Shown: positions 2,151 through 17,318 of the stretch, one piece after another
How the letters are laid out: every line of letters starts with the position of its first letter
How positions within the stretch are numbered: position 1 is the first letter of the stretch
IMG/VR virus record: IMGVR_UViG_3300022746_000018
Reading direction: 5' to 3' (one strand)
DNA from: a virus
DNA length: 64,000 bases
Made by a program: the position numbers and the translations under genes
The notes under the pieces: model-generated
The model's input: the letters and a program-made list of their open reading frames with translations, nothing else
What the model was told of the DNA's origin: nothing
Databases searched by the model: none

Positions 2151-2180
2151 TTGCTAAATGTCTGTTGGTCTTGCTATACT
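2151..2180 (+). promoter_or_regulatory. early promoter, TTGCTA + AAATGTC + TATACT
   Basis: TTGCTA 2151-2156, AAATGTC 2156-2162, TATACT 2175-2180. Confidence 0.65.
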
Positions 2181-2205
2181 TATTTTATCAACGAAAGGAC
2201 AACTC

Positions 2206-2340: not shown

Positions 2341-2341
2341 T

Positions 2342-2366
2342 AAATGTCATACCCCTATGCTAAACT
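2342..2366 (+). promoter_or_regulatory. AAATGTC-type promoter, -10 TAAACT
   Basis: AAATGTC 2342-2348, TAAACT 2361-2366. Confidence 0.45.
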
Positions 2367-2393
2367 AAATACATAATCAAGAAAGGCAAACTA

Positions 2394-2531
2394 ATGGCTA
2401 AGAGCAACTACACCCTGTATTCATACAACTTCAACGGCAGCGAGGTTGTTTCGGCAATCCACGCCTATGACTTGAGCAAGTTTCTAACAGAACACCCAGA
2501 CGCAAAGCCATTCAAGCGAGAGGTAAACTAA
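2394..2531 (+). CDS. hypothetical early protein (45 aa)
   Basis: RBS AAAGGCAAACTA. Hand-translated MAKSNYTLYSYNFNG...KREVN. Confidence 0.55.
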   Translation: MAKSNYTLYSYNFNGSEVVSAIHAYDLSKFLTEHPDAKPFKREVN

Positions 2532-2680
2532 TGTCAAGCCCTATTATCTGCCAAATGTGTGATGAAGCACGAGCAACCGAGGTTGGCGTATTTGTTGATG
2601 GTTCGATGATGGCTCTATGCGATGAATGCCTAGAGAAGTCTGAAGAGTTTATCGTGAATGTTGGGTGTCTAGCAGACTAG
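2531..2680 (+). CDS. zinc-ribbon mini-protein (49 aa)
   Basis: TAATG coupling. CQMC...CDEC motif pair. Confidence 0.55.
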   Translation: MSSPIICQMCDEARATEVGVFVDGSMMALCDECLEKSEEFIVNVGCLAD

Positions 2681-2731
2681 ACGCTAGGGGGCTAGGGTGA
2701 GCCTAGAAATAGCAAATAAACTTAGCCCCAC

Positions 2732-2760
2732 GACACGCCCGACAGCGTGGGCCGACCACC
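2732..2760. repeat. 20-mer GACACGCCCGACAGCGTGGG plus inverted G4-N4-C4 element, copy 4
   Basis: The 20-mer is identical to 841-860. It is followed by GGGCCGACCACC. Confidence 0.8.
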
Positions 2761-2792
2761 TGGATCTGGATCAGCATTAAGTTTAAGATAAT

Positions 2793-2817
2793 AAATGTCC
2801 TAGGTCTGTGATAGGCT
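2793..2817 (+). promoter_or_regulatory. AAATGTC-type promoter, -10 TAGGCT
   Basis: AAATGTC 2793-2799, TAGGCT 2812-2817. Confidence 0.35.
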
Positions 2818-2823
2818 GAAGCC

Positions 2824-2928
2824 ATGAACGTAGAAGAATTTAACGAGTTTTTTGCTGGCATGACCGCTGAGGAGATTCAGCAGTGGTATGACGAAAACAT
2901 GTTCAATAAGGATTGGGATTGGACCTAG
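2824..2928 (+). CDS. hypothetical mini-protein (34 aa)
   Basis: ATG 2824 lies 7 nt after the putative -10, so it may be leaderless. There is no clear RBS. Confidence 0.35.
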   Translation: MNVEEFNEFFAGMTAEEIQQWYDENMFNKDWDWT

Positions 2929-2930
2929 AA

Positions 2931-2941
2931 GGGTCGGCCCC
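2931..2941. repeat. G4-N4-C4 element, copy 5
   Basis: GGGTCGGCCCC directly after the stop at 2928. Confidence 0.75.
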
Positions 2942-2969
2942 TAGCTTATCAAATCAATTAAGATAATGC

Positions 2970-2998
2970 TTGACATTTCCTAATTTATGATGTAAGAT
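2970..2998 (+). promoter_or_regulatory. promoter TTGACA-N17-TAAGAT driving a leaderless gene
   Basis: TTGACA 2970-2975, TAAGAT 2993-2998. The ATG at 3005 is 7 nt past the -10. Confidence 0.6.
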
Positions 2999-3004
2999 AA
3001 TACT

Positions 3005-3175
3005 ATGAAGAAAAACAAGAAGCCATTGGGCAAAGCCAATGAAGCAAGACGCAAGGCAGAAGCAAAGGCACTATTTCAGTCTATGCTATCCAACCACGCT
3101 AGTGTAGTTATCCCTAATCGTTTCAAGGGTAGTCGTCAAGCAAACATTCGCAAGGCTATTAGCGAGTCTTACTAA
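3005..3175 (+). CDS. small basic protein (56 aa), leaderless
   Basis: Hand-translated MKKNKKPLGKANEARRKAEAKALF...ISESY. No RBS; the start coincides with the predicted TSS. Confidence 0.55.
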   Translation: MKKNKKPLGKANEARRKAEAKALFQSMLSNHASVVIPNRFKGSRQANIRKAISESY

Positions 3176-3177
3176 AT

Positions 3178-3202
3178 AAATGTCATACCCCCCTGTTATA
3201 CT
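3178..3202 (+). promoter_or_regulatory. AAATGTC-type promoter, -10 TATACT
   Basis: AAATGTC 3178-3184, TATACT 3197-3202. Confidence 0.5.
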
Positions 3203-3230
3203 ATAAACAACCTCAAAAGAAAGGCTCACA

Positions 3231-3698
3231 ATGGGCACTCGTAATCTAACCAAGGTAATCAACAGCGATGGCGTTACTGTCGTTGCACAGTATGGTCAAT
3301 GGGATGGCTATCCAGAAGGTCAAGGCTTAGTTGCTTTGCACCATGCTCGTATGGCACACGCTATTTCTAATGCCCTGCCGTATGTTCGTTTTATTTCAGA
3401 AGATGAAGCCAATGCCCTATTTGCTGGCTATGACTTTGCTAATGGAAACTTTAGCCGTGACTTTCCTACCTTTAGCCGTGATACTGGTGCAGACATTCTA
3501 GGTGTTATTGCCTATTCCGCTGGTGAAGTATTGCTTATTGATAACAGCGAGTTTGAGAATGACGACCTGTTTTGTGAAGGTGTCTACACTATTGACTTTG
3601 AGTCTAACAAGTTTATTAGCAACTTTGGCAAGGTAGTTGAGTTTGACTTGAGTAATCTGCCTACTAAGGAACAGTATTTGGATGCCTTTAGGGCTTGA
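3231..3698 (+). CDS. hypothetical protein (155 aa)
   Basis: Track ORF with the RBS AAAGGCTCACA. Confidence 0.8.
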   Translation: MGTRNLTKVINSDGVTVVAQYGQWDGYPEGQGLVALHHARMAHAISNALPYVRFISEDEANALFAGYDFANGNFSRDFPTFSRDTGADILGVIAYSAGEVLLIDNSEFENDDLFCEGVYTIDFESNKFISNFGKVVEFDLSNLPTKEQYLDAFRA

Positions 3699-3723
3699 CA
3701 ATACCCCCACTATCCTGTAAACT
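3695..3723 (+). promoter_or_regulatory. promoter TTGACA-N17-TAAACT
   Basis: Overlaps the stop of the upstream gene. Confidence 0.5.
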
Positions 3724-3751
3724 AATACCAACCCTAAAGAAAGAAGGCACT

Positions 3752-3970
3752 ATGCCTAGTTATGTTACTCGCCAGACTCGTGTTTCAGAAGTCAGCAAGT
3801 GGAATGAGATTTACACTAGCGACATCGGGACGGTATGGAAGGCAGAAAACTTTTTTGGATACTACAAAACCAAACTAAATGGTAAGACAAAGTATTTCAA
3901 GGGAGAGATGGCAGAGATGGACATTGAGAGAATGTTTCGTGATGCTGGAGATTGGGAGTGTATGCTATGA
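3752..3970 (+). CDS. hypothetical protein (72 aa)
   Basis: Internal ATG of track ORF 3695..3970 follows AAAGAAGGCACT. Confidence 0.65.
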   Translation: MPSYVTRQTRVSEVSKWNEIYTSDIGTVWKAENFFGYYKTKLNGKTKYFKGEMAEMDIERMFRDAGDWECML

Positions 3971-4041
3971 GCGATGAACCAACTTGTGCCTATTCCTTTG
4001 ATGGAGATAACTGCGAAGTCTGCTTTCCTGATGAAGGTTAG
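3967..4041 (+). CDS. possible Cys-containing micro-protein (24 aa)
   Basis: ATGA overlap with the upstream stop. Very short. Confidence 0.25.
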   Translation: MSDEPTCAYSFDGDNCEVCFPDEG

Positions 4042-4044
4042 CTA

Positions 4045-4066
4045 GGCCCCTTCGGGGGCCGACCCC
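4045..4066. repeat. G4-N4-C4 element, copy 6 (inverted) with UUCG hairpin
   Basis: GGCCCC-TTCG-GGGGCC followed by GACCCC. Confidence 0.8.
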
Positions 4067-4098
4067 TCCCTACACACCCCCTTGATCAAAAAATTTTG

Positions 4099-4107
4099 TT
4101 TAAGAAA
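4099..4107 (+). promoter_or_regulatory. TTTAAGAAA box 3 nt upstream of -35
   Basis: TTTAAGAAAtgcTTGACT. The same arrangement occurs at 5870-5887. Confidence 0.5.
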
Positions 4108-4110
4108 TGC

Positions 4111-4139
4111 TTGACTTTTGCTTGGAACTTTGCTAAACT
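4111..4139 (+). promoter_or_regulatory. promoter TTGACT-N17-TAAACT (TGn extended)
   Basis: TTGACT 4111-4116, TGcTAAACT 4131-4139. Confidence 0.65.
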
Positions 4140-4166
4140 AAACATACAAAGAAAGGCTAACCCCCA

Positions 4167-4886
4167 ATGGCACTTATCAGAAGCAAAGACCGTAAAGTCA
4201 CTAATGCTGTATCACCTAATGGCAAGACCCCTACTATTGCTAATACCTTTGGACTACCTGCTGGCAAGGCTTTTTCATGCCCTGGGGCTACCTCGGTTTG
4301 CGAGAAGGTTTGCTATGCTGGAAAGTTGGAAAAAGTATACAAGGGCGTTCGCAACATCCTAGTGACTAACTATGAGCAACTATTGGCTACTGATAAAATG
4401 GGCATGGTCAATTTGTTGAACGACATGATTGTTGATTTCAAAAAGGATTGCGACAAGCGTGGGGCAGAAAAGTTGTTCCGTATCCATTGGGATGGCGATT
4501 TCTTTAGTGTCACCTACGCTATGGCATGGGCTATGGTTATTGAACTACACAAGGATGTTCAATTCTGGGCATACACTCGTTCAGATTTTGCTGTTCCATA
4601 CCTGTATGACATTGACAACCTAGCCCTGTATTTCTCAACTGATAGTGCTAATCGTGCTTTGGGCATTCGCCTCAAGAAGCAATTCGGTATCAAGTTGGCA
4701 TACCTTGCAAACACTTTTGCAGAAGGTAAAGCAGACTTCAAGCAACTACAAGACAAGTCTGCAGTGCCATGCCCTGAAAACAACAAGAAAGTCAAGTTGA
4801 TTAGCGAACAGGGTTCAGCGTGTGTTCTATGCTCTCAATGTGTATTTGCTCGTAATGACATTTTGTTTAGTGTGACTAAGAAATAG
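4167..4886 (+). CDS. conserved phage protein with N-terminal Cys cluster (GP88-like, tentative)
   Basis: 239-aa track ORF with the RBS AAAGGCTAACCCCCA. The CPGATSVCEKVCY motif is present. The family assignment is from memory only. Confidence 0.8.
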   Translation: MALIRSKDRKVTNAVSPNGKTPTIANTFGLPAGKAFSCPGATSVCEKVCYAGKLEKVYKGVRNILVTNYEQLLATDKMGMVNLLNDMIVDFKKDCDKRGAEKLFRIHWDGDFFSVTYAMAWAMVIELHKDVQFWAYTRSDFAVPYLYDIDNLALYFSTDSANRALGIRLKKQFGIKLAYLANTFAEGKADFKQLQDKSAVPCPENNKKVKLISEQGSACVLCSQCVFARNDILFSVTKK

Positions 4887-4892
4887 GTAAGT

Positions 4893-4955
4893 ATGGAAAT
4901 AGTATTAGTTATCATGGCTGCCCTGATTGTGTTGCTGGCTTTTCTAAACCAGTGA
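4893..4955 (+). CDS. possible hydrophobic micro-peptide (20 aa)
   Basis: MEIVLVIMAALIVLLAFLNQ with a weak RBS TAGGTAAG. Confidence 0.25.
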   Translation: MEIVLVIMAALIVLLAFLNQ

Positions 4956-4971
4956 CCCTTCGGGGCCGACC
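4955..4971. repeat. G4-N4-C4 element, copy 7 (inverted)
   Basis: ACCCTTCGGGGCCGACC. Confidence 0.75.
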
Positions 4972-4992
4972 TGGATCGACCTCCTAAAATCT

Positions 4993-5010
4993 TTTAAGAA
5001 AGTTTAAGAG
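4993..5010 (+). promoter_or_regulatory. TTTAAGAAA / TTTAAGAG direct repeats upstream of -35
   Basis: Copies at 4993-5001 and 5003-5010. Confidence 0.5.
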
Positions 5011-5015
5011 TATGC

Positions 5016-5044
5016 TTGACATTCTCCTGAATCTCTGGCATACT
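5016..5044 (+). promoter_or_regulatory. promoter TTGACA-N17-CATACT
   Basis: TTGACA 5016-5021, CATACT 5039-5044. Confidence 0.6.
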
Positions 5045-5070
5045 ATATATATCGAAGAAAGGCCAACTAT

Positions 5071-5319
5071 ATGCTAATGAAGTATGACTACGACTACCAA
5101 GCCTTTGTATCAGGCGATGGCAGTTATGGTGTAGACACTGTTGTTACATTTAACTACGATGAGTTTCATGAGCGTTACCCCAATGCATGGTCAAGCCTTG
5201 ATGAGGTTCACGACTCTACTCGTATTGAGTTGATTATGGCTACCCTTGAGCAGGATGAGGAAGCCATCCGTGACCTTTGTGACGAGAACGACCTTAACCC
5301 TCTAGACTTCCTAGATTAA
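5071..5319 (+). CDS. hypothetical acidic protein (82 aa)
   Basis: Track ORF with the RBS AAAGGCCAACTAT. Confidence 0.75.
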   Translation: MLMKYDYDYQAFVSGDGSYGVDTVVTFNYDEFHERYPNAWSSLDEVHDSTRIELIMATLEQDEEAIRDLCDENDLNPLDFLD

Positions 5320-5341
5320 TGTCATACCCATACCGTATACT
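5317..5341 (+). promoter_or_regulatory. AAATGTC-type promoter (TAATGTC), -10 TATACT
   Basis: TAATGTC 5317-5323, TATACT 5336-5341. Confidence 0.4.
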
Positions 5342-5372
5342 TAGACGTAAACCCCAAGAAGAAGGAACCTTC

Positions 5373-5777
5373 ATGAACGAAGAAAACGCAGTTATCGACA
5401 ACACCATTGCAAGCGAGCACCCAGTGCTTATTCAGTATAAGACCCAGATTGCTACTCTTCAGTCATCTCTTGATGACATGCGTCAACGTTGGGAACGCAC
5501 GTTCAGTGCAAAGAACACTTTCGAAGAGAAGGTGAAGAACGTTCTTATTGAGGCCATTGAGGACCATGACGAAGATACCGTCCGCTACATTGCTAATCAG
5601 CTAAACGTTGACCTAACGGTTACCAAGACCTACGAGATTAACGTGACCTTCCGAGTAGACGTTGAGTTGGAGATTGGTGAAGACATTGACCCAGATTGGG
5701 ACTTTGACTTTACCGTATCCAGTGACAAGGTTGTTGACTATAGCTCTGACATTATTTGGAGCAACGAAGTTTCATAG
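5373..5777 (+). CDS. hypothetical protein (134 aa)
   Basis: Internal ATG of track ORF 5319..5777 follows GAAGGAACCTTC. Confidence 0.7.
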   Translation: MNEENAVIDNTIASEHPVLIQYKTQIATLQSSLDDMRQRWERTFSAKNTFEEKVKNVLIEAIEDHDEDTVRYIANQLNVDLTVTKTYEINVTFRVDVELEIGEDIDPDWDFDFTVSSDKVVDYSSDIIWSNEVS

Positions 5778-5818
5778 GGGTATGAAAAAAGGGACCTAGG
5801 CTACGTCCATGTAAACTG

Positions 5819-5841
5819 GCCCCCTTCGGGGGTCGGCCCCC
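5819..5841. repeat. G4-N4-C4 element, copy 8 with UUCG hairpin
   Basis: GGCCCCCTTCGGGGGTCGGCCCCC. Confidence 0.8.
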
Positions 5842-5857
5842 TGGGTGATCGAAACTT

Positions 5858-5878
5858 TTTAAGAAATCTTTTAAGAAA
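5858..5878 (+). promoter_or_regulatory. two TTTAAGAAA boxes, 12-nt phasing
   Basis: Copies at 5858-5866 and 5870-5878; the proximal copy is 3 nt from the -35. Confidence 0.55.
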
Positions 5879-5881
5879 TGC

Positions 5882-5910
5882 TTGACAAATCCCCTGTTAT
5901 GCCCCATAAT
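5882..5910 (+). promoter_or_regulatory. promoter TTGACA-N17-CATAAT
   Basis: TTGACA 5882-5887, CATAAT 5905-5910. Confidence 0.65.
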
Positions 5911-5965
5911 AGTATTACAAGGAAATACGGAAGCAAGAAACAGTCTAGAAAATAAATAAAAAAGT

Positions 5966-6006
5966 TTGACAAAATGCTTGACAAATCCTGTTTTCCCTGT
6001 CATAAT
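5966..6006 (+). promoter_or_regulatory. tandem promoter, two TTGACA boxes and CATAAT
   Basis: TTGACA 5966-5971 and 5978-5983, CATAAT 6001-6006. Confidence 0.6.
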
Positions 6007-6079
6007 AGATAAGTAAACAAAAACGGAGAACAAACTCCCCTAACAAAATCCTAATACCGATTAGGTGAAAGAAGCAAAA

Positions 6080-6226
6080 ATGACCGCTATTACTGTTGGC
6101 TCACAGTTCGCAACCCAGAAGTCTGGCGTTGTTGGTATTGTTCGTGAGGTAGTTGCTAACAAGAACGGCACTCAGCGTGTTCGTCTTGAGGTAAACGGTG
6201 CTGACCGTTGGACTACTGTCAAGTAA
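6080..6226 (+). CDS. hypothetical protein (48 aa)
   Basis: RBS AGGTGAAAGAAG. Hand-translated MTAITVGSQFATQKSG...WTTVK. Confidence 0.55.
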   Translation: MTAITVGSQFATQKSGVVGIVREVVANKNGTQRVRLEVNGADRWTTVK

Positions 6227-6394
6227 GACCCTTTCAGTAGGGAAAAGTCCTGAGTATGACTTTGTGAAAATAACTGCTCAACATCTTTGGAAAATGTAAA
6301 CTAATCCCTTTTGCTTGGGGGGTAGGTATTCTAGAAATGCTTATCCCCCTAGCGATTGTTCAACCCCCATACCCCCAAAAGAAAGAAAACTAAA

Positions 6395-6826
6395 ATGGCT
6401 CGTGCCCTATCTGTAAAAGTTCCAACCGCAAGTGTAATCGCTCTTATTGAGCAGAAGATTGCTGACATTGAAGTAAAGGTTGCTTCCTACAACGAAGATG
6501 TAAAGGCATACAAGGAAGCATACAAGCAGTATAAGCGTGACCTTGTTTCTGCTGCTGTTGAGGCTATCAAGAACAACGCTGATGAAGATGCTTTTGACGC
6601 TACCACTTCATACAATGGTCGTGATGTAAACCTGACCATTAGCGGTTCGTTGATTATCCTGCCAGAGCCACCTGCTCAGGTTACTGACCCAAACCAGCGT
6701 GAGTGGATTGGTCGTGAGCACATCTCTCGCCTTGAGGTTTTGAAGAAGAACCTTGCTGTGCTAAAGATGACCACCCAAGAGGAAATCAACGCAAGTTCCT
6801 ACTCGTCTGTAATGGACTTGCTGTAA
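6395..6826 (+). CDS. hypothetical protein (143 aa)
   Basis: Internal ATG of track ORF 6356..6826 follows AAAGAAAGAAAACTAAA. Confidence 0.75.
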   Translation: MARALSVKVPTASVIALIEQKIADIEVKVASYNEDVKAYKEAYKQYKRDLVSAAVEAIKNNADEDAFDATTSYNGRDVNLTISGSLIILPEPPAQVTDPNQREWIGREHISRLEVLKKNLAVLKMTTQEEINASSYSSVMDLL

Positions 6827-6923
6827 AACCATTTGGCTTCCCCTAGTCTTCCGTTCCGTAAGGGTAAATCGCTAGACTTGCGTTAGCCAAAACACCTGAG
6901 TATGTGTTCTAAACTGCTCACCT

Positions 6924-6995
6924 GCCCCCATAGGATAGTGGTTAGTCTTCTGGTCTTTCATACCAGCGGTGAGAGTTCGATTCTCTCTGGGGGTG
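6924..6995 (+). tRNA. tRNA-Glu (anticodon TTC)
   Basis: Hand-folded cloverleaf. Acceptor GCCCCCA/TGGGGGT, anticodon loop CTTTCAT, T arm GAGAG-TTCGATT-CTCTC. Confidence 0.8.
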
Positions 6996-7013
6996 CTTCG
7001 GGGGTCGGCCCCC
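6996..7013. repeat. G4-N4-C4 element, copy 9
   Basis: CTTCGGGGGTCGGCCCCC immediately 3' of tRNA-Glu. Confidence 0.8.
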
Positions 7014-7073
7014 TCAGCTCATGATCCATTTACGATAACGTTACGACACGCTAAAATATTTTCCCAAATAGTC

Positions 7074-7102
7074 TTGACAAACACCCCAAACTCATGTATT
7101 CT
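7074..7102 (+). promoter_or_regulatory. promoter TTGACA-N17-TATTCT (TGn)
   Basis: TTGACA 7074-7079, TGtATTCT ending at 7102. Confidence 0.55.
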
Positions 7103-7139
7103 AGTCTTATAAGAAATCCCCTACAGAAAGAAGTGGCTC

Positions 7140-8159
7140 ATGGCTCACGAACTAGAAATCAATGAAGAAACTGGCGAAGCAACTTTTGCGTCTTTGCGTG
7201 AACCTGCTTGGCATGGACTAGGCACTGTATTTACTGAAGAAGTAACTACTGCTAAGATGTTGGAACTTGCTCACCTTGACAACTGGAATGTTCGCCTAGA
7301 GGACGTTGCTGTGCCAGAGGGTTTTGCTAGTGACAAGACCTACTCATTCGTTACTCGCACTAACCCATTCAATAAAGACCAGAACGACATTCTTGGTGTT
7401 GTTGGTGAGCGTTACAAGGTTTTGCAGAATGAAGACCTGTTTACCTTTGGTGACAACCTGCTAGATGGTGGTAGCCGTTGGGAAACTGCTGGCTCTATCA
7501 AGGGTGGACGACAGGTGTTTGGTTCGCTTGCTCTTGAGCGTGAAACTATTCTAGACCCTAATGGTGTATCTGATAAGGTAAAGACTTATCTGCTAATCAA
7601 TACCTCGCACGATGGTTCTGTGGCTATTCAGGCAAGCATTACCCCTGTTCGTGTTGTCTGTGCAAATACTCTGAACCTTGCTCTGTCTGCTGTTCGTGGC
7701 AAGAAAGCACCTAAGCAGACTTTCAAGATTCGTCACACTCAGACTGCAGAGGGCAAGATTGCTATTGCACGAGAAGCACTTGGCTTGGCTAATGCTTACA
7801 TGGACGAGTTTGACCTAATGGCTAAGGCTATGATTGAGAAGACCGTTACCGATAACCAGTTCTTGGAAATCATTGCTAAGGCATACCCTGCACCAGAAAA
7901 GGACGCTAAGGGTTCGTTCAAGAAGTATGACGCTAAGGTAGATTTGCTTCAGGGCATTTATCGTGGACAGTTCAACGACACTATCGCTGGAACTGCTTGG
8001 GGTGCTTACAATGCATTGACCGAGCGTCTGGACTGGTATCGTTCTGCACGAGGTGGCAGTAACGAATCTATCTTGGCTAGTGCTTCAGGCTTTGACCCAA
8101 TGGTGAACGCTGAGAAGAACCGCCTAATGAAGATTGTTCAGGAAGTGGTTATGGCGTAA
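7140..8159 (+). CDS. DUF932-family protein (phage/plasmid-like, tentative)
   Basis: 339-aa track ORF. N-terminal LREPAWHGLG pattern recalled from DUF932. RBS GAAAGAAGTGG. Confidence 0.8.
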   Translation: MAHELEINEETGEATFASLREPAWHGLGTVFTEEVTTAKMLELAHLDNWNVRLEDVAVPEGFASDKTYSFVTRTNPFNKDQNDILGVVGERYKVLQNEDLFTFGDNLLDGGSRWETAGSIKGGRQVFGSLALERETILDPNGVSDKVKTYLLINTSHDGSVAIQASITPVRVVCANTLNLALSAVRGKKAPKQTFKIRHTQTAEGKIAIAREALGLANAYMDEFDLMAKAMIEKTVTDNQFLEIIAKAYPAPEKDAKGSFKKYDAKVDLLQGIYRGQFNDTIAGTAWGAYNALTERLDWYRSARGGSNESILASASGFDPMVNAEKNRLMKIVQEVVMA

Positions 8160-8204
8160 GCCATAGCCCAACCTGGGTCTCCTACTTGACAAAGTGGGGG
8201 ATCT

Positions 8205-8217
8205 GGGGTCGGCCCCC
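8205..8217. repeat. G4-N4-C4 element, copy 10
   Basis: GGGGTCGGCCCCC, followed by TGTTACAAA at 8218-8226. Confidence 0.8.
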
Positions 8218-8253
8218 TGTTACAAAACATTTATAAAATATCTTACGAAACAC

Positions 8254-8282
8254 TTGACAAACCCCAGAATCTATGAAACAAT
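8254..8282 (+). promoter_or_regulatory. promoter TTGACA with weak -10
   Basis: TTGACA 8254-8259. Only AACAAT-like hexamers lie at the expected distance. Confidence 0.4.
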
Positions 8283-8308
8283 AGATGTATAAGAAAGGAC
8301 AACCCCTA

Positions 8309-8479
8309 ATGCCTGTTTATACCTATAGAGTGACTGCTACTTATTGGATTGATGTTGAAGCCCCTGATGAATCTACCGCTGAACAGTTGGCTATGACTAA
8401 CTATGAAGATGGTGCTTATGACGGTGTAGATTCCTGTGACCTAATGGCGGTAGAGGAAGATGAGGAAGTAGATGAGTAA
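8309..8479 (+). CDS. hypothetical acidic protein (56 aa)
   Basis: Internal ATG of track ORF 8285..8479 follows AAAGGACAACCCCTA. Confidence 0.65.
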   Translation: MPVYTYRVTATYWIDVEAPDESTAEQLAMTNYEDGAYDGVDSCDLMAVEEDEEVDE

Positions 8480-8657
8480 CTTTATCCGTGCCAGTCTAGT
8501 CTTTGAATACTTTCCAGAAGAAGACGAGATAATGCAAGACCTATCCCCAGAAGAGCAAGAAGAGTATGTTCTAGGGACTGTCATTGAAGACATTTTTTCC
8601 TATCAGTTGCACGGTGAATTGCAAGAGTGTATCAAGATTGAGAGAATCTATGATTGA
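8472..8657 (+). CDS. hypothetical acidic protein (61 aa)
   Basis: Track ORF; 8-nt overlap with the upstream gene. Confidence 0.65.
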   Translation: MSNFIRASLVFEYFPEEDEIMQDLSPEEQEEYVLGTVIEDIFSYQLHGELQECIKIERIYD

Positions 8658-8757
8658 TGATTTTCGTAAACTACTAGACCTAATAATGTCGGAGGGTCTT
8701 GATAGAATAGACTCTCTATCCGATGATGAACTGAGAAAGGTAATGGTTGATGGCTAA
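8650..8757 (+). CDS. hypothetical mini-protein (35 aa)
   Basis: Overlap-coupled. Hand-translated MIDDFRKLLDLIMSEG...VMVDG. Confidence 0.4.
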   Translation: MIDDFRKLLDLIMSEGLDRIDSLSDDELRKVMVDG

Positions 8758-8893
8758 AACCTATGAAGAGGCTATCGGTGAAGCATTTGCTGACGGTGTG
8801 AAGTATGCCCTAGAGTATCTTGAAGAAGTCTATGGCGAGGGAATAATGGAAACGGACATTTGGAATGATTACTTTGGAGAAGACAATGCTTGA
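8750..8893 (+). CDS. hypothetical mini-protein (47 aa)
   Basis: Overlap-coupled. Hand-translated MAKTYEEAIGEAFADG...GEDNA. Confidence 0.45.
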   Translation: MAKTYEEAIGEAFADGVKYALEYLEEVYGEGIMETDIWNDYFGEDNA

Positions 8894-9107
8894 ACTAAGT
8901 CCAGACGCAGACTACACATCTATGGAAGACCTTGCTAACGAACTCATTAGCAGGATAACTAGTTATACATTGGAACAGGAGAAGTTTGACGAAAATGACC
9001 TTGACGGTTTCTATGATTATCTTGGCGGTCTTATTTCTGCTTATCAATCAGTAGCAGGAATGATTGGTGTTCCACACGAGATTGCTTACCCGAACGGAGA
9101 TTGCTAA
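8886..9107 (+). CDS. hypothetical acidic protein (73 aa)
   Basis: Internal ATG of track ORF 8865..9107, overlap-coupled (ATGCTTGA). Confidence 0.6.
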   Translation: MLELSPDADYTSMEDLANELISRITSYTLEQEKFDENDLDGFYDYLGGLISAYQSVAGMIGVPHEIAYPNGDC

Positions 9108-9223
9108 TGAACCTTGATTACCTTACCCCAAGTATGTGGGAGACCCTACGCAAGTTGGATTATTATCAGTTGCTGAAGTTTGCAGAGATGATGCAGCCAG
9201 TAGAGGAGGAATACAATGGATAG
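9107..9223 (+). CDS. hypothetical mini-protein (38 aa)
   Basis: TAATG coupling. Hand-translated MNLDYLTPSMWETLRK... Confidence 0.4.
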   Translation: MNLDYLTPSMWETLRKLDYYQLLKFAEMMQPVEEEYNG

Positions 9224-9338
9224 CGAGTATGTAGCAGAGCTAGTAGCAATGTATCAAGAGGGAGAAATCTCTGCCACCGATTTGATGATGGATTTGGATA
9301 TTGGTGGATTTGATGGAGATTTGCTAGACTTCCTGTAA
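9216..9338 (+). CDS. hypothetical mini-protein (40 aa)
   Basis: RBS GAGGAGGAATACA. Hand-translated MDSEYVAELVAMYQEG... Confidence 0.5.
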   Translation: MDSEYVAELVAMYQEGEISATDLMMDLDIGGFDGDLLDFL

Positions 9339-9342
9339 CCAG

Positions 9343-9362
9343 GACCCTTCGGGGTCGGCCCC
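9343..9362. repeat. G4-N4-C4 element, copy 11 with UUCG hairpin
   Basis: GACCC-TTCG-GGGTC followed by GGCCCC. Confidence 0.8.
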
Positions 9363-9425
9363 TTATTTAGATATATAATGATCAAATATCGATTACGATA
9401 GATCTAAAAATTTCCCAGAAACCGC

Positions 9426-9454
9426 TTGACAAATGCTTAGTCCTCTGTCATAAT
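9426..9454 (+). promoter_or_regulatory. promoter TTGACA-N17-CATAAT
   Basis: TTGACA 9426-9431, CATAAT 9449-9454. An ATTACGATA box lies at 9392-9400 upstream. Confidence 0.65.
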
Positions 9455-9483
9455 AGATATACAACCCCAAGAGAAAGAACCCC

Positions 9484-10026
9484 ATGCATACTTTACATTG
9501 GATTGCAGTAAAAGACGTAGAAGATAAAGACATGGCTCTACGCACAGTCACAAATAACCTAGAAGCCCTAATGGGAGACGAATACTCTGGTGGCACTTGG
9601 TTTGACTGGTTTGTTGCTGGTGGTGGACGCTGGAATGTTGAAGAAGGCGAAGACTTTGCAGAAGCATATAAAGACTATAAGACTAATATGATTATCTCTT
9701 TTGAGGAAGAGCCTGACCTATTTGAAGAGCGTGTCCTTCTGTCTATGGAAGCACGTAAGTCAGAGTTTGATAGTTATGCTAAAGACGTGAAGCCAGAGTT
9801 GCTTACTAAGATTATTAGTGAATACAATCCACGTGAGATTGACTGGTCTATTACTATGGATGTTTATCCTATCAAGAAGGTTATTGATATGGCATATGGA
9901 GAGTGGGATTTCAACTCTTATTTCTATGACATGGAAAATACTTCAACTACCCCGAAATATATGTTTGAAACTATTGACAAGGGCGACAAGAACTGGTATA
10001 TTGTTCCTGTAGACTTCCACTTCTAA
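9484..10026 (+). CDS. hypothetical protein (180 aa)
   Basis: Track ORF with the RBS GAGAAAGAACCCC. Confidence 0.8.
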   Translation: MHTLHWIAVKDVEDKDMALRTVTNNLEALMGDEYSGGTWFDWFVAGGGRWNVEEGEDFAEAYKDYKTNMIISFEEEPDLFEERVLLSMEARKSEFDSYAKDVKPELLTKIISEYNPREIDWSITMDVYPIKKVIDMAYGEWDFNSYFYDMENTSTTPKYMFETIDKGDKNWYIVPVDFHF

Positions 10027-10038
10027 GGAGAACCCCAA

Positions 10039-10179
10039 ATGGAATACAAAATTACACTAGTTCATTCACCAAGTGGTCAGTATCTAGAGTTTTATGCTGA
10101 CCTTGATGAGTTTGATGAACAAGACATTGCTGATGATATTATTTCTAATTGTTACGTTTCTGTGGAGTGTGTGGAGTAG
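10039..10179 (+). CDS. hypothetical mini-protein (46 aa)
   Basis: RBS AAGGAGAACCCCAA. Hand-translated MEYKITLVHSPSGQY... Confidence 0.55.
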   Translation: MEYKITLVHSPSGQYLEFYADLDEFDEQDIADDIISNCYVSVECVE

Positions 10180-10182
10180 ATA

Positions 10183-10602
10183 ATGTCTAAGTTTTATACA
10201 TATGACGCTTGGGTTCGTGAGTTTCAACCTATCAAGAATACTATCACTAAGTATCCTGACATTCTTCACTTTGAAACTTATGGTGAGGAAGTAGAGTTTG
10301 TTCAGAAGGCAGATAACAAGTATATCTGGACTGAAGTAGATGGTGATAGTGGCACTTACATTATTGCAGGGTATCACTATGTGAACCGTATCCATTACTA
10401 CATTACAGAGAACCCTTGGGACGATGAGTATACCGAGGTTCCTACTTGGGTATACCGCCGTTGTGACTGCACCGAGGAAGATGGTTTCGAAGACGGTAAC
10501 CCAGATTGCACTGAATGCGAGTATGGTGACATTGATATCTCTATTGATACTATCGAAGACCTAAAGCAGATTTATGGAGAGGAGGCCAACATTGTTAGTT
10601 AA
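10183..10602 (+). CDS. hypothetical protein (139 aa)
   Basis: Track ORF. Confidence 0.75.
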   Translation: MSKFYTYDAWVREFQPIKNTITKYPDILHFETYGEEVEFVQKADNKYIWTEVDGDSGTYIIAGYHYVNRIHYYITENPWDDEYTEVPTWVYRRCDCTEEDGFEDGNPDCTECEYGDIDISIDTIEDLKQIYGEEANIVS

Positions 10603-10852
10603 TAAGTTTACTTTACTTGTTGACAATGAATGGCTTCGTGAGATTCTTAAGCACTATGACCATGTAGAGGGCGGTGAGGTATTTCAACTACTGGACCAGG
10701 AATCGATCGAAATCTGTGATGACTGTCAATCATACTTGACAAAGGATGACGGAGAGGTTATCATGGATGTATACCGTTGCCCAGACCAGCAAGAGTTTTG
10801 CCTCAATTGCTGTGGATGCCCAGAACACGAAGGAGAACTTTGGTATGAGTAA
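10592..10852 (+). CDS. Cys-rich hypothetical protein (about 86 aa)
   Basis: Track ORF 10574..10852. A TTG at 10592 sits 6 nt after GGAGG (10581-10585) and is the more likely start. CDDC...CLNCCGC motifs. Confidence 0.6.
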   Translation: MLVNKFTLLVDNEWLREILKHYDHVEGGEVFQLLDQESIEICDDCQSYLTKDDGEVIMDVYRCPDQQEFCLNCCGCPEHEGELWYE

Positions 10853-11231
10853 TTATCTAGATAAGAACACACTGAGTATTTTGGAATATGACCTAAACGT
10901 TTTCTATGCTGAAGACTGGTCTGAAGAAAAGGGCACCACTTGGGAGGACGTATACACTATTCAGCCTAGTATTTACTATGTAGTTAAAGATACATGGGCA
11001 TCCTCACGTGTATATATGAAATCATTCAAGTTGACTCTAGCAGAGACTAGGGCCATTGCTCCTGACTTCCCTGAAGAAGAGTGGGGTAGTGATTTCTTCA
11101 TTGGCCTAGAGTATTTCACTAATACCTGTAAGGCACTTCCTGACAGTGTTAGAGACAAGCTAGCTTTACTTCCAAACCTAGACATGCTAGATATCGATCC
11201 CGATGCTAGTGAACTAGAATGGATTAATTAG
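10845..11231 (+). CDS. hypothetical protein (128 aa)
   Basis: Internal ATG of track ORF 10746..11231 follows GAAGGAGAACTTTGGT. Overlap ATGAGTAA. Confidence 0.7.
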   Translation: MSNYLDKNTLSILEYDLNVFYAEDWSEEKGTTWEDVYTIQPSIYYVVKDTWASSRVYMKSFKLTLAETRAIAPDFPEEEWGSDFFIGLEYFTNTCKALPDSVRDKLALLPNLDMLDIDPDASELEWIN

Positions 11232-11315
11232 TCTTCCCTGTTGAGATTACTCCAGGGGTGGACCACCAGTAAGGGGTTGCTAGGTGGGTCCAAGGGGGAA
11301 GTTGGGATTTAGGTC

Positions 11316-11344
11316 TTGACTTCCCCCTCTTATTTTGATAAAAT
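11316..11344 (+). promoter_or_regulatory. promoter TTGACT-N17-TAAAAT (TGn)
   Basis: TTGACT 11316-11321, TGaTAAAAT ending at 11344. Confidence 0.6.
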
Positions 11345-11370
11345 GTATGTGTATAAGTGAATAGAGTATT

Positions 11371-11580
11371 ATGGCAAAACAAACTAATGAAGAGAAAGCA
11401 GTAAGCGTAATCGCAAAACTACTAGCAAGTCTAGATTTGGACATTGAAATGGTTGGTCGCTATCTAGCCCAAAATGTCAGTAGGGTAGTGTATAATCGTT
11501 TTATAACAATCGCTGAGAGTGCGGAATACGAGCAAGAGAAAAAGAAAGCAAGGATTGAAGACTATGGAAACTACTTTTGA
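11371..11580 (+). CDS. hypothetical protein (69 aa)
   Basis: Track ORF. Confidence 0.65.
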   Translation: MAKQTNEEKAVSVIAKLLASLDLDIEMVGRYLAQNVSRVVYNRFITIAESAEYEQEKKKARIEDYGNYF

Positions 11581-11845
11581 AAACAAGTGCGTTATTCTAG
11601 CAGACCTATGGCTAGAGTATCGGGAAGACCCAGAGTTTGAAGACTACATCAAGTATAATGACCTATCACTTCCACTAGCATACGCTATCACTAATAAGAT
11701 AATCGAACCTAGTGACAGAGCAAAGTCTTTCATCAACGAGGGATTTGCCTTGCTGCTTGATTTGCTAGATGTATCAGATGACAACTATCAAAGTCTAGAT
11801 GACTTGTTTGCTGGTTCTATTGGAGACACTCCAGAAGAAAATTAA
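11564..11845 (+). CDS. hypothetical acidic protein (93 aa)
   Basis: Internal ATG of track ORF 11519..11845 follows AGGATTGAAGACT. It is the last gene of the + block. Confidence 0.65.
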   Translation: METTFENKCVILADLWLEYREDPEFEDYIKYNDLSLPLAYAITNKIIEPSDRAKSFINEGFALLLDLLDVSDDNYQSLDDLFAGSIGDTPEEN

Positions 11846-11850
11846 CTAGA

Positions 11851-11880
11851 CAGGCTCATATCAGAAATGGTATGGGCTTG
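11851..11880 (+). terminator. 10-bp stem-loop at the end of the early block (no U-tract)
   Basis: CAGGCTCATA-loop-TATGGGCTTG with two G-U pairs, hand-folded. Confidence 0.4.
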
Positions 11881-11883
11881 CCT

Positions 11884-11894
11884 GGGCCGACCAC
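11884..11894. repeat. G4-N4-C4 element, copy 12 (inverted, degenerate)
   Basis: GGGCCGACCAC. Confidence 0.65.
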
Positions 11895-12002
11895 ACCAAA
11901 CACCAAATGTCAAGTAGCAAAAATAACAAATAAATAACATTACGATAGCTATCCAAAATTCGTGGAAGTTTCCAAATTGGGATATCAAGTTATGTGTTTG
12001 TA

Positions 12003-12155
12003 TATAGGGTATTTCTACTATAGGGTATTACGATCATCAATTTAGATACCCCCGATTTGAGGGGGTCTGCCTGGCAGGGTATTACGAAGTATCCCAAAAT
12101 CCCCCTATAAGTAATAACACCCTATATACAATATATAAGCAATTTCTACCCTATA
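12003..12155. repeat. iteron-like TATAGGGT / AGGGTATT repeats around a GC hairpin
   Basis: TATAGGGT is direct at 12003 and 12019 and inverted at 12119 and 12148. Partial copies lie at 12076 and 12103. Hairpin ACCCCC/GGGGGT spans 12048-12066. Confidence 0.7.
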
Positions 12156-12159
12156 AGAT

Positions 12160-12224
12160 AAAACACTTTTTCTTTTTGATATTTATTTATTTATATTATT
12201 TATTGATATTTATTCTCAATAAGC
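12160..12224. other. AT-rich DUE-like tract with two TTGATATTTATT 12-mers
   Basis: Almost pure A/T. The 12-mers lie at 12176-12187 and 12203-12214. Confidence 0.6.
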
Positions 12225-12253
12225 TTGACAAATTGATCAAAATATGATATGGA
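12225..12253 (+). promoter_or_regulatory. possible promoter TTGACA-N17-TATGGA reading into the DnaA-box cluster
   Basis: TTGACA 12225-12230. The -10 is weak, with an upstream TG. Confidence 0.3.
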
Positions 12254-12335
12254 TATTTGGGGGTATATGGCTATTTGGATATGGGGATTTGGAGGTTTAG
12301 GAGCTATGCTGAGATAGGGCTATTTGGGGCTAGAA
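12245..12335. repeat. degenerate ATATGG / ATTTGG short tandem repeats
   Basis: GATATGGATATTTGGGGGTATATGGCTATTTGGATATGGGGATTTGG... Confidence 0.55.
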
Positions 12336-12452
12336 GGGGGCAAGGAGGGCCGAACAGCATTACGATGGCCCCTTATATACCTGTATTATTACCCAAACAA
12401 CATTTCCCAAATCAATCCCTATTGATAACCATTATCATCAGTAATATCTATC

Positions 12453-12551
12453 TGTGGAAAACTATGTGGATAAGTCTGTGGATATGTCCTAGTTATCTGT
12501 GGATAACTAAGGACTAGGCGTAGCCATAACTCTATTTTAGACTGTGGATAA
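12453..12551 (+). promoter_or_regulatory. cluster of five co-oriented DnaA boxes
   Basis: TGTGGAAAA 12453, TGTGGATAA 12465, TGTGGATAT 12477, TGTGGATAA 12498, TGTGGATAA 12543. Confidence 0.65.
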
Positions 12552-12557
12552 CTTGGA

Positions 12558-12749
12558 TTAAGCGAAGTCATAAATGTCATTTTCGTCTAAATCAGGGGTA
12601 TCCAGGTCTAGCTTCTTGTGGATAGATCTGTGGATATCTTGAAAGTTATTTATGTTATTGTTTACAAAATCTTGTTTAAATAATGTGTCACACATATCAC
12701 AATATAACTCCGTATCAGATAGTGTCTTTACATAGAAAAGTCTTTGCAT
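12558..12749 (-). CDS. hypothetical protein (63 aa)
   Basis: Track ORF; the last gene of the - block. Confidence 0.6.
   Translation of the reverse strand: MQRLFYVKTLSDTELYCDMCDTLFKQDFVNNNINNFQDIHRSIHKKLDLDTPDLDENDIYDFA
12617..12637 (+). promoter_or_regulatory. two further DnaA-box-like 9-mers inside a CDS
   Basis: TGTGGATAG 12617 and TGTGGATAT 12629, in the same orientation as the cluster. Confidence 0.4.
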
Positions 12750-12844
12750 TATTTCCCTAAATACAGACTATAGGCAACATAACATTCAATCAAGTCATAG
12801 CCCATTACTTCTGATTCTTCACCAGCTATTACGATCTTATACAT
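12749..12844 (-). CDS. possible mini-protein (31 aa)
   Basis: TAATG coupling to the downstream gene. Hand-translated MYKIVIAGEESEVMGYDL... Confidence 0.25.
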   Translation of the reverse strand: MYKIVIAGEESEVMGYDLIECYVAYSLYLGK

Positions 12845-12902
12845 TTCATTAGGATGTATTTGTATCAATAGGTATTCTTTCTACTTGTAATTTGTTATAG
12901 GG

Positions 12903-16151: not shown

Positions 16152-17318
16152 TTAGTCTCCCTTTACGTTAATAATCTGTCTTAGTGTGTGTCTAATCTTT
16201 ACTAAATCTTTTGCATCTTCCATAACAACATCAATATCTTTGTATGCATTTGGATGTTCGTCAATGAATGCATCGGAGTGTGACCATTCAATACCCTCCA
16301 TCATAGCATCCAAAGACTCTTTTGTAAAGGTCTTACGTGCTTCATTGCGAGAATATTCACGTCCAGCCCCATGTGGTGCAGTGCAGAATGATAACCTATT
16401 TCCAAGTCCCTCAACTACATACGAGGCAGTTCCCATTGATCCTGGAATAAGACCCATCTGTCCTTCATTGGCAGAGATAGCACCCTTACGAGTTATCCAC
16501 AAGTCTTTGCCCCAATGATTCTCAGGCTGAGTAAAGTTGTGATGACAGTTAATTTCTTCAATGATCTCAAAGTCTCCTGCGTGGTGCTTGAAAGCCTTCT
16601 TGACACGCTCCATCATTACTTCACGATTCTTAAATGCAAACTTCTGTGCCCAAGTCATTTCAGCAATATAGCGATCGAATTCTGGAGTGCCTTCTACAAG
16701 GTATGCCAAGTCTGGATCTACAAGGATAATGAAGTTCTTCTTAGCATACTCTTGTGCAACAGCAATGTGATGTGTAGCAATCTTGTTACCAACTCCACGT
16801 GAACCTGAGTGCAGGAATAGCCAGATAGACCCCTCTTCATCTTTCGTAATCTCAATAAAGTGATTGCCAGATCCAAGCGAACCAATCTGGTGTGTCCAGT
16901 TGCTTGCATACTCAGATGGATTAAATCCTGCGTCCAATGCAGACTCTAAAAGTTCTTCTGCTGCATCAAGTGCGTCTGGCTTGACTGTCTGATTATGCTT
17001 AAAAGCTGACAGTGGAATAGCAGACTCAATTGACTCTCGTAATCTTTTAAGGTCCACGGTAGCCAAATCATCTACAGTCTTATTAGTCTTAATAGCCATC
17101 ATTCCACAACCAATATCCACGCCAATTGCAGCTGGCATAATTGCTCCCTGCGTAGGAATTACAGAACCGACAGTTGACCCCTTGCCAAGGTGTGCGTCTG
17201 GCATTAAGGCTAGGTGTGGAAATATGAACGGCATTGATGAAGTCACTTTAGCCTGTTCAAGTGTCTTTTCATCTAAGATGGATGCCCAGTTAAATAGTTT
17301 GTTAGTTATTTGTTTCAC
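16152..17318 (-). CDS. rtcB: RtcB-family RNA 3'-phosphate ligase
   Basis: MPDAHLGKGSTVG, GCGM and GSGNHFIE motifs typical of RtcB. A GTG at 17318 follows AAGGAGAG and overlaps the upstream stop (GTGA). Confidence 0.9.
   Translation of the reverse strand: MKQITNKLFNWASILDEKTLEQAKVTSSMPFIFPHLALMPDAHLGKGSTVGSVIPTQGAIMPAAIGVDIGCGMMAIKTNKTVDDLATVDLKRLRESIESAIPLSAFKHNQTVKPDALDAAEELLESALDAGFNPSEYASNWTHQIGSLGSGNHFIEITKDEEGSIWLFLHSGSRGVGNKIATHHIAVAQEYAKKNFIILVDPDLAYLVEGTPEFDRYIAEMTWAQKFAFKNREVMMERVKKAFKHHAGDFEIIEEINCHHNFTQPENHWGKDLWITRKGAISANEGQMGLIPGSMGTASYVVEGLGNRLSFCTAPHGAGREYSRNEARKTFTKESLDAMMEGIEWSHSDAFIDEHPNAYKDIDVVMEDAKDLVKIRHTLRQIINVKGD

Follow-up and report, generated by a model that had tools for sequence, protein, structure and literature searches.

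The border between the early genes and the rest of the genome

The DNA examined here is a 64-kb window, meaning the whole stretch of 64,000 nucleotides analysed from the viral record IMGVR_UViG_3300022746_000018, which is part of a large virulent phage. Small + strand genes, preceded by consensus TTGACA-N17/18-TATAAT promoters, occupy positions 1-11845, and from 12558 on all of the genes are on the - strand. These include RtcB, 12/13 tRNA genes, a manA RNA (Rfam RF01745, 65.9 bits; 30807-30990, -) within the tRNA cluster, ribonucleotide reductase, a DnaE-type polymerase, SSB, a primase and a DnaB-like helicase. Beside the DnaE polymerase, at 42107-45546, lie a RuvC-like resolvase, a Cas4-like PD-(D/E)XK exonuclease and a RecA/UvsX-like recombinase, and these four would make up a complete toolkit for recombination-dependent replication. 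After the 11.8 kb of small + strand genes there is a non-coding gap of 712 bp (11846-12557), and it is this gap, with an array of DnaA-type boxes in and just beyond it, that concerns us here. From its content and its conservation, we take it to be a family-conserved non-coding border module, probably placed between the sigma70-driven small early genes and the rest of the genome.

An original prediction, made from the letters of the window, had listed seven co-oriented boxes in this region, three of them perfect and three neighbouring pairs 12 nt apart. Both direct reading and a scan of the whole 64-kb window and its shuffles with the TGTGGATAA-type pattern, counting matches with up to one mismatch, found all seven where they had been placed, on the + strand. 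Boxes 1 (12453, TGTGGAAAA, one mismatch), 2 (12465, TGTGGATAA, perfect) and 3 (12477, TGTGGATAT, one mismatch) form a tandem of three with 3-bp spacers, TGTGGAAAActaTGTGGATAAgtcTGTGGATAT (12453-12485). Boxes 4 and 5 are perfect single copies of TGTGGATAA at 12498-12506 and 12543-12551, the latter represented by TGTGTATAA in the near-identical relative L001. Boxes 6 (12617, TGTGGATAG) and 7 (12629, TGTGGATAT), with one mismatch each, make up the tandem pair TGTGGATAGatcTGTGGATAT (12617-12637). The start-to-start distance is thus 12 nt at 12453/12465, 12465/12477 and 12617/12629. A further tandem pair of perfect boxes, TGTGGATAActcTGTGGATAA (870-890, +; starts at 870/882), which the original prediction had overlooked, has the same orientation and spacing. 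It sits between a GC-rich terminator-like stem and the consensus sigma70 promoter TTGACA(950)-N18-TATAAT(974), the latter some 65 bp downstream of it. The isolated perfect box reported inside rtcB was also found (16493-16501, - strand).

Comparison with shuffled sequence, which had been proposed as a check, showed that it is the clustering of the boxes that lies far beyond chance, though their overall number is ordinary: the window holds 28 matches against 21.3 +/- 5.6 in the shuffles. A 200-bp stretch contains seven co-oriented matches, whereas none of 300 dinucleotide-preserving shuffles had more than three, and four pairs show a spacing of exactly 12 nt (shuffle mean 0.003). When the gap was shuffled by itself (n=2000), the mean was 0.43 matches and the maximum 4, compared with the 7 observed. 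Since at least 120 stretches in a scan of viral contigs also carry a tandem box pair, the bare pair is common in such contigs and by itself not diagnostic.

Perhaps the array could be the product of chance, or of a repeated peptide (YPQ / IHR) encoded by small - strand open reading frames (ORFs). Two such ORFs do overlap the boxes, one of 53 aa ('YPQ', 12419-12580) and one of 63 aa (12558-12749, -), and in L001 a 22-nt deletion joins the frame of the second to that of the first. This explanation is nonetheless effectively excluded: the shuffles dispose of chance, the boxes lie in differing reading frames, neither ORF is conserved beyond L001 (91% identical), and boxes also occur in non-coding contexts at 870/882, in the relatives L077, L089, L106 and L117, in the Streptomyces phages Samisti12, Wakanda and Annadreamy, and in T5. 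The coding status of the 63-aa ORF is doubtful because it is conserved solely in L001, and the 53-aa 'YPQ' frame running over the boxes is artefactual, a consequence of the repeat. The gap of roughly 700 bp without genes that had been described therefore holds for 11846-12557, the boxes at 12617 and 12629 lying within the doubtful 63-aa ORF. As far as sequence comparison can tell, the boxes are a real and selected array of DnaA-type sites with the universal consensus, to which DnaA would be expected to bind.

The strongest repeat of the gap is another one, overlooked in the original prediction: a co-oriented two-part element, ATTACGA-N13-16-CCC(C)nAAA. Copies of ATTACGA are at 11939, 12027, 12081, 12359 and 12828, all in the same orientation; there are 4-5 of them in the gap and 3-8 per gap in relatives, and the motif is absent from the opposite strand of the gap in this phage and in every relative examined. 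The two-part pattern was found twice, with 0.07 expected per window. Three co-oriented two-part repeats, beginning at the first three of these positions, form a left arm (11939-12110, +), in which the second halves, 13-15 nt after ATTACGA, read CGTGGAA, CCCCCGA and CCCCCTA and the CCAAAT-type half-sites point forward. To the right is a G-rich arm (12246-12350, +), an array of ATTTGG(GG) units that is the reverse complement of the left-arm CCAAAT half-sites, and thus an inverted copy of the second half of the two-part element; this too had been overlooked, although the ATATGG/ATTTGG repeats as such (12246-12337) had been noted. The ATTACGA copy at 12359-12365 (+) follows the G-rich arm, a position kept in all relatives. 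Over 915 bp the direct repeats fall into 20 families, and there are 21 inverted pairs.

Related versions of the two-part element, ATTACGA/TTACGA-N15-CCCAGA/CCCAAA, are present at 9392-9454 and ~7029-7102, immediately upstream of the -35 hexamers (TTGACA at 9426 and 7074) of two early sigma70 promoters. Their location suggests that the ligand of the element also regulates early transcription.

The module in freshwater relatives and Streptomyces phages

About 15 related gaps were gathered from viral contigs by means of their neighbouring proteins and the DNA pattern. All contain the whole module with its parts in the same order, so that the conservation check suggested earlier came out in favour of the element, and in some of them in favour of the boxes. 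Just ahead of the first box, repeats of the CCCAAA type (TATTACCCAAAC / TTTCCCAAA) are followed by an AT-rich stretch of 33 bp (12386-12452, +); in relatives three TCCAC motifs with a period of ~10 nt take the place of these repeats, and the AT-rich stretch has CAGTAAGAT where the window has CAGTAATAT (12439-12447). The well-diverged relatives L077, L106, L117 and L089 share the order of parts and keep CAGTAAGAT-N3-5-TGTGGATAAnnnTGTGGATAA. Three of the four (L089, L106, L117) add two further single boxes, and L077 has boxes in both orientations. The boxes are invariant in relatives whose flanks and iteron variants have diverged. Between L001 and the window there are three indels in 12250-12580: a 15-nt insertion that amounts to an extra unit of the G-rich array, a clean 12-nt deletion of one box unit, and the 22-nt deletion mentioned above, which implies that the repeat arrays change by whole units. 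In L149 a comparable box pair and promoter are located upstream of the homologue of a 339-aa early protein.

The left and right arms vary together from lineage to lineage: their half-sites are CCAAAT and ATTTGG, respectively, in the window and L005, and CCAAAC and GTTTGG in L002, L003, L089 and L117. Such covariation fits a single lineage-specific DNA-binding protein for both arms and leads us to predict a sequence-specific phage protein as their ligand. The box, on the other hand, is unchanged across hosts as different as E. coli, Streptomyces and the host of this phage. Iterons that vary by lineage beside an invariant box would fit a phage ligand for the former and a universal host ligand for the latter.

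Among isolates, the closest are Stanwilliamsviridae phages of Streptomyces, which are 56% identical in the polymerase, 41% in the helicase and 55% in the 339-aa protein (Samisti12 gp2). This protein (7140-8159; PHROG 1221, a family without functional annotation) is the best-conserved gene product of the early block, and in Samisti12-like phages gp2 is inside the terminal repeat. Samisti12, Wakanda and Annadreamy carry homologous modules beside homologous genes. The modules contain TTACGA-N12-15-CC(C)AGGA repeats, TATATAGGG, a hairpin, ATTTGGGG and a TTGACA, and the only perfect TTATCCACA boxes of 15-20 kb cluster there, including pairs spaced by 3 to 4 bp. Unlike in the window, there are just 3-4 boxes, they are head to head, the orientation of the module to its neighbours varies and the hosts are high-GC bacteria.

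Samisti12 has a direct terminal repeat of 10,666 bp, of which nt 1-900 are the module, non-coding and in mirror image, with TTTACGA-N15-CCAGGA repeats, TATATAGGG inverted repeats, the hairpin and ATTTGGGG repeats. At the junction of the unique sequence with the right repeat the module again finds itself in a convergent gap, and three perfect TTATCCACA boxes, the sole perfect ones in 14.7 kb, lie 58-94 bp outside the repeat edge. These boxes are at 3952-3996 of the extracted segment L080 (122951-122995 of the record), outside the right terminal-repeat edge; a TTGTGCACAA palindrome is situated between them and the edge, and the clade motif TATTAC(C/A)C begins exactly at the edge. The terminal repeats of Wakanda and Annadreamy are short (1773 and 789 bp). 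In both phages the module is the largest intergenic region, from ~6-6.5 kb to ~7.5 kb off the right end, with TTACGA-N12-15-CCCAGA repeats in the gap and with every perfect box present in 19-kb stretches; two of these boxes are spaced at 12 nt and have a third, inverted one alongside. These two phages rule out that the module is always at the edge of the terminal repeat. We found no description of this largest intergenic region of the Stanwilliamsviridae in the searchable literature.

The sites exist, are non-random and conserved, and in the isolates with mapped ends they occupy a defined genomic position: in the three isolates, as in T5, the module is 6-11 kb from one physical end and borders a terminal block of small genes. 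To judge from these genomes, the common denominator would be the border of that terminal 6-11 kb small-gene block, and neither the repeat edge nor convergent transcription.

Likeness to the T5 injection stop signal and to replication origins

The closest precedent for this arrangement is the untranslated Repeat Region 3, or injection stop signal (iss), in the left terminal repeat of T5 (Davison 2020, bioRxiv 10.1101/866236; Heusterspreute et al. 1987, Gene 52:155). Its DnaA boxes invariably come as pairs with 3 bp between them, a second set lies ~3 kb upstream near pre-early promoters, and the pattern recurs in 25 T5-like phages (10.1101/866236). In the T5 record the + strand genes T5.011-017 are followed by the iss and then by the - strand gene T5.018. 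The caution in the original prediction that the boxes sit in a zone of convergence was apt; the T5 iss has the same convergent layout. Both elements are large untranslated regions between convergent gene blocks, at the border of small early or pre-early genes with strong sigma70 promoters (a terminal block in T5 and probably here), and both are dense in direct repeats, inverted repeats and palindromes. The T5 pairs TGGGGATAAgtcTGTTGATAA and TGTTGATAAgtcTGTGGATAA (9437/9449 and 9498/9510) have the orientation and the 3-bp spacer of those in the window, one pair with an identical gtc spacer, and the extra box set a few kb upstream amid early promoters has its counterpart in the pair at 870/882. 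T5 also has a G-rich stretch ahead of the repeat end, and its iss string tttgggaggctagaagga resembles the G-quadruplex-like run GGGCTATTTGGGGCTAGAAGGGGGCAAGGAGGG of the window (12317-12349), one of three such runs in the 64 kb, which is on the non-template strand downstream of a promoter at 12225. The repeat families differ, however (the T5 DRD repeat is TGTGCAAATCCGACA, versus ATTACGA-N15-CCC here), as does the order of parts, since T5 has its boxes first and the G-rich stretch last. The T5 iss belongs to a long direct terminal repeat. Of the Samisti12 module, the iterons fall within the 10,666-bp repeat and the boxes 58-94 bp beyond it. The phages themselves are unrelated, this one having a DnaE-type polymerase and Stanwilliamsviridae kin.

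We favour, at a probability of roughly 0.4, the reading that the gap is a border module of the T5-iss type, docking host DnaA next to a phage protein that binds the iterons. A phage-encoded protein would bind the lineage-specific iterons, ATTACGA-N13-16-CCCnAAA on the left and the inverted ATTTGG array on the right, and host DnaA would bind the tandem-pair array, oligomerising cooperatively from its high-affinity boxes. Together with the hairpins, the two might assemble a bulky nucleoprotein barrier at the inner edge of the terminal block that enters first. This could hold or pause the DNA, as has been proposed for the first-step transfer of T5, and could halt RNA polymerase coming from the convergent units and from the 12225 promoter until phage early proteins remodel it. 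We infer the binding of DnaA here, and with it every functional consequence.

Several points weigh against this reading. That the early block of this phage is a terminal block is deduced from the homologous modules and from the relatedness of the 339-aa protein to Samisti12 gp2. The function of the boxes in the T5 iss has itself never been tested, so that the comparison is an analogy to an unexplained element. A blastn comparison with T5 found the boxes and no other similarity, and T5.011, considered as a possible homologue of the 339-aa protein, was rejected (E = 1.4, no homology). Phage SPO1, which likewise has a long terminal repeat, lacks such a box cluster, and this also rules out box clusters as a general feature of long terminal repeats. 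In Wakanda and Annadreamy the genes that flank the module are co-directional, so insulating convergent transcription cannot be its shared role. Finally, the relatives L002, L003, L005, L006, L007 and L018 keep the module, including CAGTAAGAT, without consensus boxes: there is no pair, and at most one box with a single mismatch or degenerate remnants remain. It follows that DnaA cannot be the core of what the module does; on this evidence the boxes appear to be under selection where they are present and to be an accessory to the module. With no similarity beyond the boxes, and between unrelated phages, the likeness to T5 is best viewed as an analogy, possibly a convergence, and not as membership by descent.

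How T5 halts the entry of its DNA with 8% of the genome transferred has gone unanswered for decades, and in a 2026 paper the mechanism is still described as poorly understood. The sole sequence clue, pairs of DnaA boxes with 3-bp spacing in a repeat-rich untranslated region, had previously been confined to T5-like phages. Paired boxes in iss-type regions of these phages were thus known, as were iteron origins with DnaA boxes in plasmids and P1. What is new, as far as the searchable literature goes, is the recurrence of this box arrangement in a lineage that is unrelated, has a DnaE-type polymerase and includes cultured Streptomyces phages, together with the two-part covarying iteron architecture and the contrast of lineage-specific iterons with an invariant host box. 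The equivalent genomic position in an unrelated lineage argues for selection tied to the early-block border, and cultured Streptomyces phages with mapped ends make the T5 question testable in a second, tractable system. A wider proposal, about which we are doubtful, would make paired boxes at the early-block border a general DnaA-dependent checkpoint for staged genome entry, common to T5-like coliphages, Stanwilliamsviridae actinophages and the freshwater clade. This would make DNA transfer in two steps a widespread phenomenon, with host DnaA as the stop or anchor factor and a lineage-specific iteron-binding phage protein as its release or assembly partner.

The proximity of the Samisti12 boxes to a repeat edge raises the possibility that the module marks the edge of a terminal repeat or a packaging site, at which terminase or the repeat-duplicating machinery would recognise and cut concatemers and DnaA would serve as a host bending factor, like IHF at lambda cosB. 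In Samisti12 the edge separates the iteron module from the boxes, the closest of which is 58 bp away, Repeat Region 3 of T5 spans the edge of the left terminal repeat, and TATTAC(C/A)C, which follows the last ATTACGA in the clade, starts the unique sequence at the Samisti12 edge (a weak lead). We nevertheless think this quite improbable, given that the module in Wakanda and Annadreamy is 5-6 kb from the edges of their short repeats and that 700 bp separate the T5 boxes from the edge of the repeat there.

DnaA might, alternatively, act on transcription and nothing else. The boxes would then be roadblocks or operator-like sites at which early transcription is terminated or tuned, at the close of the early block as well as ahead of single early promoters, and the other repeats would be separate regulatory sites. 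DnaA at DnaA boxes does block RNA polymerase at E. coli asnC. The pairs at 870/882 and in L149 are between a terminator stem and a strong promoter, the boxes of the module are 200-300 nt downstream of the 12225 promoter in a zone without an intrinsic U-tract terminator, and the two-part element is found just upstream of the early promoters at 9392 and ~7030. We consider this unlikely all the same: the orientation of the boxes to the flanking transcription varies by lineage (both orientations in L077, co-directional genes in Wakanda and Annadreamy), 7-9 boxes exceed what a roadblock needs, and the constant bordering of a terminal block would be left without explanation.

A close rival, which the evidence does not separate cleanly from the T5-iss-type border module, is an iteron-type replication origin assisted by host DnaA. 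We think it possible, and only a little less likely than that module; the original prediction had proposed an oriC-like origin dependent on host DnaA. In such an origin a phage initiator would bind the ATTACGA/CCAAAT iterons, the 12225 promoter would transcribe the G-rich array and thereby either activate the origin or supply an R-loop primer as in ColE1 and T4 oriF, and DnaA on the tandem boxes would open the adjacent AT-rich stretch or aid helicase loading. The replicators P1 oriR, RK2 oriV and pSC101 combine iterons, an AT-rich tract and auxiliary DnaA boxes. The module resembles them in its co-oriented iterons, its AT-rich tract, the tandem boxes at its edge and the dispensability of these boxes, which would account for the relatives that lack them. 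It differs from them in that no Rep gene was recognised beside it, the AT tract is apart from the boxes, and the iterons are two-part and mirrored by an inverted half-site array.

The AT tract (12160-12224) is 65 bp long and ~90% A+T, with two TTGATATTTATT copies (12176, 12203). Its first part, 12160-12219, is the least stable duplex in the 64-kb window, at -36 kcal per 40-mer (window mean -50.3, sd 3.7). It is directly upstream of the -35 hexamer of the sigma70-type promoter of the early class at 12225-12253 (+; TTGACAAAT, N17, TGaTATGGA), which has a weak -10 and an extended TG and reads into the G-rich array with its G-quadruplex-like run on the non-template strand. The promoter is conserved, as TTGACA-N17-TATAAT in L005 and L089 and with a TATCAT -10 in L117. 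The AT tract is present in L001, L005 and L106 and missing in L117 and L089, and in the window it is 235 bp from the first box, separated from it by the G-rich array.

Nearer to the boxes the case for an origin is of another kind. The basal unwinding system of bacterial oriC, as described by Pelliciari et al. 2021 (PMC8287927), has at least three DnaA-trios within 16 bp of a box. In the AT-rich 5' flank of the tandem boxes there are 8 consecutive NAN triplets that end 5 nt before the first box; in relatives the run is 6, 6, 5 and 3, i.e. 5-8 triplets in four of the five clade members, for chance rates of 4.2% (at least 5) and 1.6% (at least 6). They are on the side on which the E. coli DNA unwinding element lies relative to R1, an orientation checked in 5425 E. 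coli genomes. The tandem pair with a 3-bp spacer and, in the window, the weaker box nearest the triplets also agree with this system, and in relatives the three weak TCCAC sites oppose the strong boxes across a 35-bp AT-rich stretch. However, the triplets satisfy the permissive NAN rule and fit the 3'-GAT-5' consensus poorly, CAG and TAA alone coming near it, and CAGTAAGAT is retained in relatives that have no boxes. The flank (12410-12459; -44 kcal per 40-mer) is moderately AT-rich compared with the window mean, and directly beyond the triplets there is no strongly AT-rich unwinding element, the extreme tract being the distant one. There is also no dnaA/dnaN context, and the array is absent from several relatives.

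Other evidence tells against an origin more directly. The cumulative GC skew, which had been put forward as a check, reaches its maximum at ~12 kb, in the convergence zone, following gene orientation, and not the minimum typical of an origin. Where the flanking genes are co-directional, the skew does not switch across the module (+0.105 vs +0.115 in Annadreamy, +0.066 vs +0.082 in Wakanda), and we have therefore set GC skew aside as evidence on origins, as it tracks transcription only. In the Streptomyces phages the boxes stand head to head 3-14 bp apart, too close for an unwinding element to fit between them, and pairs identical to those of the module occur at early promoters outside it. The recombinase, Cas4-like exonuclease and resolvase would make recombination-dependent initiation available. 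In T5, origins were placed mid-genome by older electron-microscopy mapping (cited in 10.1101/866236); our own literature search for a mapped T5 origin yielded nothing usable. Nor was an initiator recognised here, as in the original prediction, either near the replication genes or by family searches of the proteins flanking the module, and this leaves room for a host initiator. What stands of the oriC-like origin, then, is a real, selected box array with an AT-rich 5' flank; the distant AT tract, the skew maximum and the box-less relatives speak against the rest. Were the origin reading true, the module would be the first replicator defined for Stanwilliamsviridae-like phages, and a virulent phage with its own replisome would still be recruiting host DnaA.

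Other elements of the gap, the host and the early cassettes

The last + strand gene, which encodes a protein of 108 aa (11519-11845), is found just before the module in all clade members, and its product matched no Pfam or PHROG family. Within the left arm are two direct copies of TATAGGGT (12003 and 12019; 12003-12026, +), with a like arrangement in L005, L018 and Samisti12. They are followed by a double hairpin identified by reading the sequence (12048-12077), ACCCCC-N7-GGGGGT (arms at 12048-12053 and 12061-12066) and then CTGCC-T-GGCAG. The hairpin stems are kept with other sequences in relatives: CTGGCC/GGCCAG in L005, CTGGC/GCCAG in L106 and CCACCC/GGGTGG in Samisti12. Next come three inverted copies of the TATAGGG element (12103-12155, -; CCCTATA at 12103, 12120 and 12149), with ACCCTATA at 12119 and 12148, and after them the AT tract. 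The direct and inverted TATAGGGT repeats, the ACCCCC/GGGGGT hairpin, the TTGATATTTATT 12-mers and the ATATGG/ATTTGG repeats are all present as originally listed.

The DNA of the gap had no similarity match among 50,697 phage records, and the Rfam covariance models gave no match in 11700-12900 at gathering thresholds or up to E = 1. That the G-rich transcript might be a sponge RNA with GGA motifs was considered and dropped, the motifs not being conserved in L117 or L089. We likewise rejected the idea that a phage sigma factor or RNA polymerase uses ATTACGA-N15-CCC as its promoter: the orientation of the motif to the downstream genes is opposite in the window and in Annadreamy, and one of the Annadreamy copies overlaps a ribosome-binding site and start codon.

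With respect to the host, a scan of genome contigs found members of the clade (L211, L213 and L217) binned into metagenome-assembled genomes (MAGs) labelled Chitinophagaceae, Beijerinckiaceae (Lake Mendota) and Bacteroidetes. We did not take the host from these labels, since the contigs had probably been assigned to these unrelated freshwater MAGs in error; what they suggest is a freshwater habitat and not a host. The cyanobacterial matches of the same scan were discarded, having no similarity to the window. Our guess, based on the kinship with actinophages, is a host among the low-GC freshwater actinobacteria.

Most of the early promoters are preceded by a recurring GGGTCGGCCCC(C) stem, often followed by TGTTATCAAA, as at 489-560, 850-870, 2945-2965, 8200-8225 and 11880-11895. 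Stem and promoter together look like a shared terminator-and-promoter cassette between the small early genes.

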